From: Eledone cirrhosa
Taxonomy: Eukaryota
Reading direction: 5' to 3'
Assembly (NCBI GenBank): GCA_964016885.1
Contig: OZ024760.1
Location: forward strand, 29,140,001-29,204,000
Length of the DNA: 64,000 nt
Shown: one piece after another, positions 22,900 to 48,748 of the stretch
Numbering within the stretch: the first letter of the stretch is position 1
Layout of the letters: each line of letters begins with the position of its first letter
Notes under the pieces: model-generated
Database searches by the model: none
What the model saw: only the letters and a program-made list of their open reading frames with translations
What the model was told of the DNA's origin: nothing
Position numbers and translations under genes: made by a program

Positions 22900-24935
22900 T
22901 TGTAATTTCGTAACTAGTTGTGTCCTTTCTGTTCCTGTGAAACCTATCTTCTCAAGATTTGTATTGAGGCAGTTACTAACATACCCCAGTAATCACAGGC
23001 ATAAATCTGAAGGCATAGTCAGGGTGGAGTATCTCCAGATTTCTTATTAGTTCTGCACAGATATTCTCCTTTTCACTAATCTTTGATATTATATTAGCAT
23101 CTGCTGGGCAGCTAATTTCCATCATTGTGCATGCCTTCTTTTCCCTGTAACATTTCATTATATCTGGTCTGTTATGCCTGCATTTTATTGGGGTTTTTAC
23201 TGGAACATTCCACCAGTACTCTTTCATATTATATATATGTATGTATGTCTTCTACATTGCTGTAGCTTTTAATGTGTTTATTATCTGGGCTATCTTTTCT
23301 ACGGATTGCATTGTACAGTGTTTTGGCCATTACATCATGCCACACAAAAGACTTATGGCGAAACTCTCTGCAATGGGTGTGAAAGATGATCTTTTTAACT
23401 GGTTGAAATCCTTCATTCTCAGCCGAAAAGAGTTAGTCCCGGTTCTAGGTCAGCATTCTTCACCATATGAGATGTCATCTGGTGTACCACAGGGATCTGT
23501 TCTTGGTCCCCTTTTGTTTGTTGCATACATTAATGACATAGATGCCAACTTAAAGAATGCCACAGTACTGAAATATGCAGATGACATCAAGCTGTACCTT
23601 AAAATCAAAAGGACAGATCCTGAAATCTATAACTCTTTCCTACAATCTGACCTGGACACAATGCAGCAATGGATCACAGACTGGCAACTGAAGCTGGCTG
23701 TGGACAAATGTACCACCATGCATTTTGGGAGGAAAAATCCAGCGTCCACATACTCCCCCCACGACACTGATATCAAGAAGTCCTCTTGTGAACGTGACCT
23801 GGGCATTACTGTCAGCAACGATTTACGTTGGACAAAGTACATCTCTAAAATTGTCAAGAAGGCCGAGGGTGTCTTGGCATTACTCAACAAGACCTTTGTT
23901 AGCCGCTCTCCAGCCATCTATTTAAAGCTGTATACAGTTATGGTACGACCACACTTGGAATTCGCATCATCAGTCTGGAACCCCTATCTTGCTCAGAACA
24001 TTGACCTCCTGGAAACTGTTCAGAGACGTGCAACCAAGCACATACCCTCCATCAGACGCCTACCATACTCTGAACGCCTTGCTTCCCGGGGCATGGATTC
24101 ATTGAAGCTCCGAAATCTGGCAATGGACTTGGTAAACACCCACAAAGTTATTAACCATCTCACCAACAACCCTGAGCACCTTTTTGATCTCCATGTGTCT
24201 AACACATGTGGACATGCCTACAAAGTCAGAAAACAGCACAGCTCCCATGACTTTTGGAAACATTTTTTCATGCTTAAAGTTGCTGAAGCATGGAACAAAC
24301 TGCCTGCGTCAGTTGTTAGCTGTCAAGACACTGCATCCTTTAAAACCCTCATGCTTCCCAAAATTCGACAAAACTACACCTTGTGTACCCCTTCCATACA
24401 CATGCACACACGTGTATATCATGACTCATGCACTGTTAATTTTCCTGACGTTTGTACATTACCCTATGTACTATAACATACACTTTTGATGAGCACTGTA
24501 CACAATATTTTCATTATTATTATATAATACTGCAATGACATCTTTGGACAGCTACTTATGACATGGGTGATATCCTCGATGTTAGTTCTGCAGAGTCTGC
24601 ACTTGTTATAACATCTAGGTGTTTTGCCTGCATCCCTATCTCTTTTGTGAACCAGGTATTTTGTGCTAATCTCCTGTTCCTGGATTGTAAAAGCGTAACC
24701 TTCAAAGTGGGAACCAATATAGCGGTTGTTGGTCCAAGATAGACTACTTTCCTTATCTATATTACTCTCACTCTGGAGCTTCCTGGCAACATATCCATGC
24801 ATGATTTTTTGCTGATAGGCATGCAGTTTTTCGTCCATGGATTCACTGCGATACTGCTGAGCGACATCCCTGGGTGTGAGTTTTTCATTATCACACAAGG
24901 AATATCTCACAAGGAGTTCCTTCCCAACTCTCACT
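22900..24935 (-). mobile_element. R4/Dong-like non-LTR retrotransposon 3' region (CCHC knuckle plus restriction-like endonuclease), split by a nested LINE
   Basis: IQEQEISTKY...KCRLCRTNIEDITHVISSCPKMSLQYY | HDVMAKTLYNAIRRKD...EYWWNVPVKTPIKCRHNRPDI...EISCPADANIISKISEKENI (PD-(D/E)xK motif). Confidence 0.8.
23340..24520 (+). mobile_element. 5'-truncated CR1/L2-type LINE; uninterrupted reverse transcriptase ORF fragment
   Basis: PHKRL...SGVPQGSVLGPLLF...YADDIKL...ERDLGI...VRPHLEFASSVWNP...LETVQRRATK...AWNKLP with an (ATT)n tail; 3' copies at 9632, 30870, 39680, 47240, 52645 and 55985. Confidence 0.92.
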
Positions 24936-29871: not shown

Positions 29872-30201
29872 CATTCATCATCATTATCATTTTACGTCCG
29901 CTTTTCCCTGCTTGCAAGGGTGGGATGGGAACTGATTCTGGCTTGATTTCTACAGCTGGATGCCCTTCCTAACACCAACCTCATTTACAGTGAGCGCTGG
30001 GTGCTTTTTTGCCACGACCACTTTACAGTGGAATGATAGAGACCCTAGTCCCTATCATCTCATTTCTACAGCTGAGTAAACTGGAGCAATGTGAAATAAA
30101 GTGTCTTGCTCAAGGAAACAACACATCACCCGGTCTGAGAATTGAACTCACAACCTTTCGATTGCAAGACCAATGCTCTAACCACTAAGCCATGTGCCTC
30201 C
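29872..30201 (-). mobile_element. SINE family A, near full length
   Basis: Reverse complement of 28424-28775 with a small internal deletion. Confidence 0.88.
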
Positions 30202-34710: not shown

Positions 34711-35921
34711 CATGTTGCTACATATCTCTAATTTTCATTGTTCAACTTGGATCTTTTATAAATGTTTTTTTATAAAGTTTTTTTAAGTGTTATATATTCA
34801 TTAAGAGTTCTTTCTTTTTCATTATCCTTAGGACTAAAATCTAATTAACCGTTGTTTGTTGGGAGTTTTGTAGGGAGGAGTTTCAGGGGTATTGGAAGTT
34901 CTGTGTAATTTTAAATTGAAAATGTTTAAGTGTTATACAAAGAAAGAAAATGTTGTCTATTTATCTATTGTTTGCTTCTATGTTTTAATTAATTAGTTTC
35001 TTCATTAAGCTATATGTTAATCAGGATTTAATCAATTAATTAACACGAAGTATAAAAAGGTCTCTACTGTATATGCTGAACATACACACATGTATACATA
35101 TATACACTTACATATGTCTAGAATACATATCTGCATGTAAGCATGGAAAGTAGATGATGATGATGATCTGTGTGTCTGTGTGTACACAAATAGGATGTGG
35201 TAAAAACCAGCTAGACCATTTCTCACCAGAGTACTTGATAGTTGGGGTAATAGAGTGGATAATATGAAAAGATTCAGGATCCCTTGAGGATTTCAGCTAG
35301 ATTCCCGCCACTCAAATACCAATGCTTTAGTTTGGATCTAGCTGCCGAAATAGCTGAAGCTCAGCCGTTGGGGTCCTGAATCTTTTCATATCTATATATA
35401 TATGTGTATGTGTATCGACAGTCAGTCAATTGACTTTTATCAAATTATACTGAGGAAACAATGTTTCCATTGGTCTTTCCAATTGCTAATAATATCTATC
35501 GGTCGCAACTCCAGGTAGAAGGAGCAACGTGAAATAAAGTGTCTTGCTCGAGGACATAACGTATTGCCTGGTCCAGGAATTAAGCTCACAACCTCACACT
35601 TGTGAATCTCATTCTCTTACCACTCATCTTACGGTAAACATTGATGCAATTCACTTAATGTTGCTGTCTGATGAGACCATGTGAATGGTCAAATAAAATC
35701 AAGTGGCTACAATTGACATTGAAATATGTATCACAGATCTATTAACAAAGACTTCTTTAACATCTACAACTTCACATGTTGTTCATTCTAAATATATAGA
35801 TAGATAGATAGTAATAATAAGCATGGATGAGGTATCAAATTTTCATTACATTTATTGAGGCGTCATGCGTGTTTCTCGATTGATTAGCTCAAGTTTCGAT
35901 CTTTATCGATCAGGTTCGTAG

Positions 35922-42962: not shown

Positions 42963-43430
<468 letters not shown>

Positions 43431-46000: not shown

Positions 46001-46384
46001 GTTAATGGTAAACGCCTGCTGGGCTTGAACCATAAAGAGGTTGTGAGTATTTTAAAAGAGTTGCCACAACATGTTCGGTTGGTTTGCGCTCGTCCAAAAA
46101 AAAGTAAATTAGAAAACTTCACCAACAAAGAAGAGGATGTCTTTCAAAGCCCTTCCCTTCTTAATTCTGGTGTGATCCCGAATTCACCATGTACAGACCG
46201 GCTTGTTAAAGCTAAATCGGAAGTTACATTATCAACGCAAGAATGGACTGCTGAGAAGAACCTTTTAAATCGATCACGATCCCTTGAGCCCTTAACGGGG
46301 CTTGCTATGTGGAGTAGTGAACCTGTGGTTATAGAATTGAAGAAACTTGACAAGGGTCTTGGATTTAGCATTCTTGATTATCAG
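46001..46384 (+). CDS. PATJ: Patj/MPDZ-family exon B (end of first PDZ, linker, start of next PDZ)
   Basis: Acceptor ttctttctgttttttttag|GTT and donor CAG|gtaagg; 384 bp = 128 codons. VNGKRLLGLNHKEVVSILKELPQHVRLVCAR...DRLVKAKSE...RSRSLEPLTGLAMWSSEPVVIELKKLDKGLGFSILDYQ continues exon A in frame (GDELLE|VNG). Confidence 0.95.
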
Positions 46385-46431
46385 GTAAGGATTTCTTTGG
46401 CCATTTCAGTTATCTGTGCTTTGTTGTGTTT

Positions 46432-46695
46432 CTTTTACTGGTTTCAGTCATTAGACTGTGGCCATGCTGGGGCAGTCTTTACTGGTTTCAGGTCATTAGA
46501 CTGTGGCCATGCTGGGGCAGTCTTTACTGGTTTCAGGTCATTAGACTGTGGCCATGCTGGGGCAGTCTTTACTGGTTTCAGTCAGACTGTGGCCGTGCTG
46601 AGGCAGTCTTTACTGGTTTCAGTCATTAGATTGTGGCCATGCTGGGGCAATGCTTTACCGGTTTCAGTCATTAGACTGTGGCCATGCTGGAGCAT
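46432..46695. repeat. ~45-bp tandem array (~6 copies) from a SINE-like tail, ~50 bp after the exon B donor
   Basis: Unit tttactggtttcagtcattagactgtggccatgctggggcagtc. Confidence 0.85.
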
Positions 46696-46865
46696 TGCTT
46701 GGACTTAATCAATCATATTGATCTCAATATTTATTGTTTTCAAACATGCTACTTATTTCATTGGTGTCTGTTTTGTTGAAACTCCAAAGTCACAAAAGAT
46801 AAATGAACTGTAAACGTAAACAAAAATATCAACACAAACATGCTAATTTGCATATATCTATCTAT

Positions 46866-47223
46866 CTAAGGCGGGTAAAATTCCCGAGATCCATGGACGA
46901 GTTCTCTCCAGCAGTCTCTGTCCCTCATTATCGCTGCCATGTCCTGCATCTCCAACAGACCAGTGTCTGTCCTTAGGGCATCAACATACGTTAACCTTGG
47001 TCTTCCTCTTCCAGTGTGTCCATGTAGGGGCTCCCAAAGGAGTACTGAGTGCAATGTCAACTCTGGATGTCGGTGAGCATGTCCAGCTAACCTCAGTCTC
47101 CTCTGCGTCACTTTTGAGCTGACTTTTGGGATGCTCCCATACAGCTCTGAGTTTTTCATCCTCAGTGTATACTGATTAATGTTCAGAGCCATCCTCAGCA
47201 TTCTCGTGTAGCACCCATCCACC

Positions 47224-47225
<2 letters not shown>
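46866..47225 (-). mobile_element. RTE LINE 3' end, stop-free ORF2 C-terminus
   Basis: DGCYTRMLRMALNI...QRRLRLAGHAHRHPE...LLWEPLHGHTGRGRPRLTYVDAL...MRDRDCWR. Confidence 0.85.
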
Positions 47226-47255
<30 letters not shown>

Positions 47256-47314
47256 GTAGTAATGTAGTAATCAAAATTATTGTTCAGTGCTCAGGTGGAC
47301 TACAGCTCATCGAA

Positions 47315-47354
<40 letters not shown>

Positions 47355-47467
47355 ATGCATATATATGAGCAAGACATGGTCACCTAACTTGGCATTGCCC
47401 ACAACAGGCCAACTCGTCTAACCCATGCTAACATGGAAAAATAAATAAATATATATATATATATATC

Positions 47468-47559
47468 ACCAGTCTGAGGAGCAGATCAATAATGGTGTCA
47501 GGTCCATAACTTCTATGGGTCACCTTGAGCCATTCCTCAGTGAAACACGTGTAACAGGT
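47468..47559 (+). ncRNA. Type I hammerhead ribozyme (Penelope-type, palindromic stem III), predicted cleavage after GUA at 47553
   Basis: Stem I accagt/acaggt (5 of 6 bp); core CTGAGGA 47474-47480; long interrupted stem II; GAAA 47542-47545; stem III ACACGTGT then A. Activity untested. Confidence 0.65.
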
Positions 47560-47613
47560 CAATACGCAATACATTTTTTCATATGTAAACGAAACTTCCT
47601 CGTTTTTTTATAT

Positions 47614-47655
<42 letters not shown>

Positions 47656-47673
47656 TGTATATATATATATATG

Positions 47674-47705
<32 letters not shown>

Positions 47706-47780
47706 CGTGACAAGTGGAGAGATGCTGAATAGGACCCATCCCACCCTTGCAAGCTGGGAAAAATGATGATGATGATGATG

Positions 47781-47816
<36 letters not shown>

Positions 47817-47882
47817 AATGAAGTAATTCCATCGGAAAAGTCCAGGAAAAAAGAGTGCTCTATGTAAGCAACAGAGCTTAAT

Positions 47883-48013
47883 TATTATTATTATGTAATA
47901 AACAACATAAGGCAATTATTCCATTTACCAGTGGTTTCTTAAAAGCAAAACCTTTTGCTTTTAAGAAACCACTGGTAAATGGAATAATTGCCTTATGTTG
48001 TTTATTACATAAT

Positions 48014-48020
<7 letters not shown>
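47883..48020. repeat. Perfect palindrome with 68-bp arms and a 2-nt spacer
   Basis: 47883-47950 is the reverse complement of 47953-48020; contains GAAACCACTGGTA (47965-47977). Confidence 0.9.
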
Positions 48021-48049
<29 letters not shown>

Positions 48050-48149
48050 GTATATATATACTTATATGTCCGTATATATATTTATATATGTATATATATA
48101 TATACGGACATATATATATATATATGTCCGTATATATATATATATGTCC

Positions 48150-48247
<98 letters not shown>

Positions 48248-48439
48248 ATATATATATTTATATATATATATATGTCCGTATATATATTTACTCCACTAAA
48301 CTGTTGAGTGCTTTATATCAGTTATAAAATTTTTTTAAGCTTGTTGAATCCCAACATATATATATCCCACTGCATATATATATATATATATATATATATC
48401 AGTATATACCATATATACCGTATATATGTCTGTATATGC

Positions 48440-48473
<34 letters not shown>

Positions 48474-48505
48474 ATAAATACATTATATTCTTCGTTGTAA
48501 CACAG

Positions 48506-48748
48506 GACCCTGTAAACCCTGCTGAGACAGTAATTGTGATCAAAAGTCTTGTCCCAGGTGGCGTTGCTCAGCAGGATGGGCGGTTGTTACCAGGTGACAG
48601 GTTAGTGTTTGTTAACGATGTCAATTTGGAGCACGCTACATTGGATGATGCTGTACAGGCTCTGAAAGGTGCTCCCAGAGGCACAGTTGTCATTGGAGTT
48701 GCCAAACCTCTACCATTAACAGCTAATATACCCCAGTCAGATCAAGAC
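48506..48748 (+). CDS. PATJ: Patj/MPDZ-family exon C (remainder of second PDZ, equivalent to MPDZ PDZ5)
   Basis: Acceptor ttcttcgttgtaacacag|GAC and donor GAC|gtgagt; 243 bp = 81 codons. DPVNPAETVIVIKSLVPGGVAQQDGRLLPGDRLVFVNDVNLEHATLDDAVQALKGAPRGTVVIGVAKPLP... joins exon B as ILDYQ|DP. Confidence 0.95.

Follow-up and report, generated by a model that had tools for sequence, protein, structure and literature searches.

Hammerhead ribozymes have already been described in Penelope-like elements (PLEs), in Hydra elements and as scattered intronic motifs (PMC8557442, PMC4209133, PMC7229834, PMC6155905, PMC6962438, bioRxiv 10.64898/2026.07.22.740005). Among the nearest described systems, the Hydra clade of PLEs (Craig et al. 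2021, PMC8557442) is marked by the motifs DKT and RWK, a CxCX5C linker, CxxC/CxH and insertion into (TA)n; hammerheads are present, and an octopus member is listed. The minimal hammerheads of metazoan PLEs (Cervera and De la Pena 2014, PMC4209133) are of type I, have palindromic positions 15.2-16.2 and are built for action as dimers: according to that source a single minimal hammerhead shows no detectable cleavage, and dimers cleave at a low level, as PMC4209133 and PMC6765202 together suggest through the palindrome. As reported by Frangieh et al. (PMC11167929), a PLE hammerhead cleaved only in the presence of the element's protein and was dispensable for insertion in vitro. Very weak stems II, of one or two pairs, can suffice in natural hammerheads (PMC3088659), and the Selaginella PLE-X rows of file S2 of PMC8557442 contain long hammerhead loops. 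Two further systems carry type I hammerheads, namely the non-LTR retrozymes (PMC7229834; bioRxiv 10.64898/2026.07.22.740005), many of whose hammerhead copies are intronic (44% in X. tropicalis, bioRxiv 10.64898/2026.07.22.740005), and the retroelement-derived intronic hammerheads RECK, CTCL and DTNB of amniotes, which are conserved across species (PMC6155905).

The motif considered here lies in an intron within the window, the whole 64-kb stretch of DNA that was analysed. It very probably represents a Penelope-like hammerhead, likely of the Hydra clade, carried by a 154-nt 5'-truncated copy in a PDZ gene and predicted to be catalytically silent. The relevant features, in window coordinates, are as follows.

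46319-46384, + strand: 3' part of the upstream exon, encoding the first PDZ strands (2d92_A residues 17-36, E 0.0055)
46385-48505, + strand: host intron, 2,121 nt, GT..AG, phase 0, within the PDZ domain
47450-47465, no strand: (TA)n run at the 5' junction, likely target site
47466-47619, + strand: 3' end of a Penelope-like retroelement, likely Hydra clade, 5'-truncated, tail-less, 154 nt; 88-93% identity to the best-scoring dispersed copies; stops at the family's common short 3' end
47468-47473, + strand: 5' strand of stem I, ACCAGT; the family's upstream extension is lost through the truncation
47474-47480, + strand: core C3-A9, CTGAGGA, intact
47481-47541, + strand: stem II domain, 61 nt; the family base helix GCAGA/TCTGC is damaged (A.A at pair 3, G.U at pair 1)
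47534-47540, + strand: TCCTCAG, exact complement of the core, due to the minority base present at 47539 (TCCTCTG in the family)
47542-47545, + strand: core G12-A15.1, GAAA
47545-47552, + strand: palindromic helix III, ACACGTGT; family majority ACGCGCGT, both differences at CpG sites
47546-47551, + strand: CACGTG
47552-47553, + strand: TA
47551-47554, + strand: GUA triplet with predicted cut at 47553/47554, from the hammerhead consensus applied to the letters
47554-47559, + strand: 3' strand of stem I, ACAGGT
47620-47706, no strand: (TA)n-rich run at the 3' junction
48506-48748, + strand: downstream exon, remainder of the PDZ domain (PF00595, E 2.3e-12; 2d92_A residues 37-102, E 1.7e-15)

The exon pieces flanking the intron match consecutive residues of the PDB chain 2d92_A, an InaD-like protein, which places the motif on the sense strand of the gene and bears out its earlier placement in the sense strand of a 2.1-kb intron. 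From its encoded sequence the host appears to be a Patj-type PDZ gene, either Patj or MPDZ. Just within the 5' end of the same intron there is a tandem array of units of about 44-45 nt (window 46435-46700).

All letters and coordinates of the first reading, which had proposed a complete type I core, a GUA cleavage triplet, a palindromic stem III and the internal anti-core TCCTCAG, proved correct letter by letter. The intronic copy presents the type I order CUGANGA ... GAAA ... UH, and its stem I retains five of six pairs, the exception being a single A.A. A descriptor of this arrangement has a single match in the 64-kb window; in block-wise dinucleotide shuffles any match arose in 5 of 200 cases and a match with a perfect palindrome in none of 200, the descriptor having been composed after the motif had been seen. 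Comparison with the Rfam hammerhead models, which the earlier note had recommended, gave no match at the motif, neither at the gathering score nor at E<=10. The 61-nt stem II is the likely cause of this miss, which weakens the database assignment and leaves the argument from descent untouched. The region also folds no better than its shuffled versions (z -0.65), and the core:anti-core hairpin comes out as its structure of lowest predicted energy.

The case for descent comes from the dispersed copies. A 110-nt query against the 3.0-Gb genome returned 1,555 first-look candidates, of which 40 were scored, with identities of 88-93% for the best; one 21-nt pattern has 624 exact matches, and an intact 27-nt 3' half is retained at 122 places. 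The motif thus belongs to an interspersed repeat, which answers the question of genome copy number that had been raised for it. The copies display the anatomy of a PLE, combining 5' truncation, inverted 5' copies (29 of 86) and an optional 3' tail. Two 3' ends recur, at +150-159 in 46 of the 86 copies and at +200-229 in 27, so that they lie about 68 nt apart, farther than the 30-40 bp described. At least four TA occur within 16 nt past the 3' end in 47 of the 86, and the intronic copy itself lies between TA runs, as expected of insertion into (TA)n by the Hydra clade. Among 91 copies (from 89 loci, among the first 100 of 153 matches) only three have their 5' end at most 2 nt from the cut site, and no peak is seen there. 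The 5' ends of 33 of the 91 gather just upstream of the motif, between -30 and +8 relative to 47466, and only 10 of the 91 reach further; this cluster falls in an AT-rich stretch that looks like the (TA)n target and, in an extended stem I, is the partner of the 3' arm.

In longer copies a low-complexity 3' UTR lies upstream of the hammerhead, preceded by an endonuclease frame, and the three regions are collinear in L091, L103, L108, L165, L166 and L171. The frame contains the motifs WFNxPYS, CNCRxxxxC, YVYIG, CRLCLAE and MNCLH, thereby displaying the CxCX5C linker and the CxxC/CxH around the catalytic E and N (CNCRSRMEC, CRLCLAE and MNCLH in several copies). L161 contains, in opposite orientation to the UTR, a reverse transcriptase (RT) fragment that carries GGLYRDN and shows 76-81% DNA identity to the RT-thumb regions preceding the endonuclease in L098 and L162. 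The order of an RT followed by a C-terminal GIY-YIG-type endonuclease is hence recovered as pieces across overlapping decayed copies; none of the copies examined unites RT, endonuclease and hammerhead, and a search for a longer copy with the N-terminus of the family's RT found none. The RT pieces resemble Hydra-1_Obim in a by-eye comparison with published sequences. Taken with the motifs, this comparison makes it likely that the element is a PLE of the Hydra clade. The link to Penelope that had been suggested from the motif is supported by these endonuclease and RT remnants, the (TA)n targets and the inverted 5' copies.

A sister family, L139, has an unbroken frame of 861 aa with DKT, YRDD and LWR and 11,504 library relatives at E<=0.001; among its top 50 library matches DKT is present in 37 and RWK/RWR in 25. 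No RT or GIY-YIG family was matched by Pfam in the PLE-type open frames including L139, nor was an RT or GIY-YIG protein found in the PDB with the sister ORF, and a homolog search with the endonuclease piece gave nothing at E<=0.001. A search within 1.5-3.2 kb downstream of the closest sister ORFs found no hammerhead in 25 of the 31 loci. L159 was dropped as an RT-linked copy, being a chimera of two families with two CNC motifs, in which (L159:3388-5524) the RT and linker of the L139 family are fused to the endonuclease of the hammerhead's family. Searched with the endonuclease, the genome gave 45,184 first-look candidates.

The family shares with the Hydra-clade PLEs, as described in PMC8557442, a type I hammerhead near the 3' end, the C-terminal endonuclease with its CxCX5C linker and CxxC/CxH, (TA)n targets, a tail, and inverted 5'-truncated copies. 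It is distinguished by its 61-nt stem II domain, where the Hydra rows of file S2 have stems of 3-7 bp and loops of 3-10 nt, by a helix III that is an even 8-nt palindrome, by the decay of the intronic copy, by a 3' UTR of at least about 1.3 kb ahead of the motif, and by a motif sequence that differs from that of Hydra-1_Obim. With the metazoan minimal hammerheads of PMC4209133 it has in common the type I fold, the palindromic positions 15.2-16.2, the dimer-type design, G10.1-C11.1 in the family majority, a prevalence of single scattered copies and some opposite-strand pairs 100-700 bp apart. Unlike them, it has no extra base between A9 and a much longer stem II, and the intronic copy has G10.1-U11.1. 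The retrozymes resemble it in having a type I hammerhead in a repeat; they are head-to-tail tandem units, whereas none of the 86 copies has another hammerhead in direct orientation at a distance of up to about 1.4 kb, and the family is tied to RT/endonuclease remnants. An identity as a non-LTR retrozyme was rejected on the test of tandem units. The amniote hammerheads in RECK, CTCL and DTNB are likewise type I, intronic and retroelement-derived, but those are conserved across species, and the present motif has a damaged stem II and is a single, drifting member of a large repeat family.

No second copy of the family was found in the window or in 10 kb on either side of it (84 kb), and a partner may lie farther off in the same transcript. 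Two same-strand matches 2.3 kb apart in L296 were discarded as a pseudo-LTR pair, since they reflect a local duplication. In L151 a sister endonuclease ORF lies between direct repeats of another motif; the searched copies include no full-length family element.

Other hammerhead-like sequences are also present. In the same intron, window 47882-48018 is a long perfect inverted repeat in which the 3' half of a different hammerhead-bearing repeat occurs twice, head to head; the two halves are 89% identical to the L073 motif and both lack the CUGANGA half. A second hammerhead-like motif at window 35662-35739 (+ strand), with CTGATGA, a 46-nt stem II domain, TATGTA and an AUC site, belongs to another repeat (279 first-look candidates), in the family of which stem II is weak and a stretch of 6 nt is complementary to part of the core (shuffle P 0.058). 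The loci L001-L328 (1.37 Mb) contain 183 distinct hammerhead-like strings, forming 17 clusters of two or more, with mostly palindromic helices III and stem II domains of 11-95 nt. Beyond these, the window contains an open frame with an RVT_1 domain (23151-24476, + strand; E 2e-20), a LINE-type remnant, and two similar truncated tRNA-like matches that are likely SINE heads (30135-30192, - strand; 43103-43160, + strand).

The majority sequence of 86 distinct copies has a stem II base of five pairs, GCAGA/TCTGC, the pair G10.1-C11.1 and the palindrome ACGCGCGT. From this the intronic copy differs at 13 positions, six of them at CpG, and its non-CpG divergence of 7.4% equals the median of 33 copies that were found through other parts of the element, independently of the motif. 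Two of the differences are of special interest. The A at 47539 completes TCCTCAG and breaks the third pair of stem II; at the equivalent position the 624 pattern matches have T in 596, A in 18 and C or G in 10, and A recurs in two of the 85 other aligned copies. The T at 47541 is a CpG decay that turns G10.1-C11.1 into G-U. The base of stem II in the intronic copy is thereby reduced to G.U, C-G and A.A, and is out-competed in the prediction. About nine of the 18 carriers of the anti-core base (L329-L346) have a common subfamily marker, which the intronic copy lacks; the base has thus not arisen privately in every carrier. In about five of the 18, an A at core position 7 makes the complementarity imperfect. 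Changes at 47492 and 47533 lengthen the hairpin beside the clamp.

The conservation of the core in paralogous copies, a point raised in the earlier note, does not rise above background: the core bears 21 changes in 330 positions against 156 in 1,908 elsewhere (p=0.32), and thus no selection on the core is seen in the genomic copies. All 11 core bases are kept in 14 of the 33 unbiased copies, so that an intact core in the intronic copy is unremarkable. For each stem pair, 0-3 of 85 copies show compensatory changes, the exception being a CpG pair with 15 of 85; some of these copies had been selected for likeness to the intronic copy.

The folding was predicted by a nearest-neighbour model that ignores tertiary contacts and proteins. 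Of the 86 copies, 31 lack the core pattern and seven have a broken closing pair, leaving 48 to be scored. The intronic monomer is predicted to lie 15.8 kcal/mol from the active fold, with 93% of its core paired, and ranks 44th of 48, the best copies being predicted at 3-6 kcal/mol. The off fold that had been postulated for TCCTCAG is reproduced in the prediction with a pairing of 0.93, and if 47539 and 47541 are set to the majority the predicted monomer gap falls to 6.3 kcal/mol and the anti-core pairing to 0.11. About half of the core is still paired in the prediction for intact monomers, so that absolute fold values are not readable as activity. In modelled tandem dimers of 12 hand-picked copies, nine, all with the palindrome and an intact or near-intact stem II, are at 0.5-3.0 kcal/mol per site from the double hammerhead; the corresponding gap is 10.6 kcal/mol for the intronic copy, 12.9 for another anti-core copy and 4.9 for a non-palindromic copy. 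The family hence looks to be of the dimer type, and in these models dimerisation appears to give the intronic copy no rescue.

Given the above observations, the following history may be proposed. In the parent element two hammerheads would pair through ACGCGCGT, forming helix III, and then cut after GUA. The intronic copy would be a short product of reverse transcription, inserted into a (TA)n run and drifting thereafter. The T>A change at 47539 and the CpG decay at 47541 would have broken the base of stem II, and at the same time lengthened a partial complement of 5 nt into a clamp that covers 7 nt of the core. Splicing of the host pre-mRNA would then probably proceed with no cut at 47553/47554. 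The suggestion that the motif could cut this pre-mRNA co-transcriptionally finds no support in the models, in which it ranks near the bottom for the predicted active fold, nor in the lack of a partner in 84 kb or the unconserved core. As a counterpoint to the silent reading, 11 of 11 core bases and a perfect palindrome are retained.

This counterpoint also underlies the most durable of the alternatives, according to which the copy has the same origin and cuts slowly, either as a monomer or in trans through its palindrome with another transcript, with no regulatory role. Besides the core, the GUA site, the palindrome and the five pairs of stem I, it can draw on the weak monomer activity of type I motifs in the axolotl (PMC7229834) and on the natural hammerheads that function with very short stems II (PMC3088659). 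Yet each core:anti-core pair is predicted at 0.77-0.96 when folded within 240 nt and at 0.45-0.88 when folded within 400 nt, the first pair of stem II reaching <=0.0002; for a minimal metazoan PLE hammerhead tested as a single motif, cleavage was not detectable in the experiments of PMC4209133, and no neighbouring copy lies within 84 kb. Slow cutting is hence unlikely.

That the motif is a domesticated, off-by-default switch of the Patj-like gene, held shut by the anti-core clamp and opened by a protein or by a second RNA pairing with the palindrome, the cut then altering splicing, is very improbable. Its intronic sense orientation, the intact core and palindrome, and the changes at 47492 and 47533 that extend the hairpin adjoining the clamp are compatible with such a device, and conserved intronic hammerheads are known in amniotes (PMC6155905). 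Those cases are, however, conserved across species; the divergence of the intronic copy looks neutral, and the change that makes the clamp also damages stem II, weakening the on state. A functional role of the anti-core base is further opposed by its presence in only 18 of 624 copies; moreover, in the 17 motif clusters of the genome, some of which may be merged or due to chance, anti-core pairing is enriched in none at P<0.05, the lowest shuffle P being 0.058. That short words of AT-rich DNA fell into this order by chance, with no hammerhead descent, would agree with the Rfam miss, the folding z of -0.65 and the near-absence of compensatory changes in 85 copies outside CpG sites, but deserves practically no credence given that the full pattern appears in 0 of 200 shuffles, that the family majority, which occupies the usual place of PLE hammerheads, surpasses the intronic copy in both stem II and palindrome, that unrelated motif clusters in the examined loci repeat the same architecture in other sequences, and that covariation is not expected among neutral copies of one parent.

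On the whole, the favoured interpretation remains that of a decayed Penelope-like hammerhead, predicted to be silent. A regulation of Patj splicing, if true, would be an instance of ribozyme domestication in an invertebrate-type genome, although the evidence points against it. That 5' ends do not accumulate at the cut site is consistent with uncut RNA being the template for insertion, as reported (PMC11167929). What appears to be new is a Penelope-like family with a hammerhead of unusually long stem II, which joins a published class; no prior description of this repeat family was found in the papers searched, although an earlier record may exist. As found, the locus has little significance beyond suggesting that neutral change can mimic a designed off-switch, and the family offers a handy test set in that natural copies with intact and with broken stems II coexist within it.
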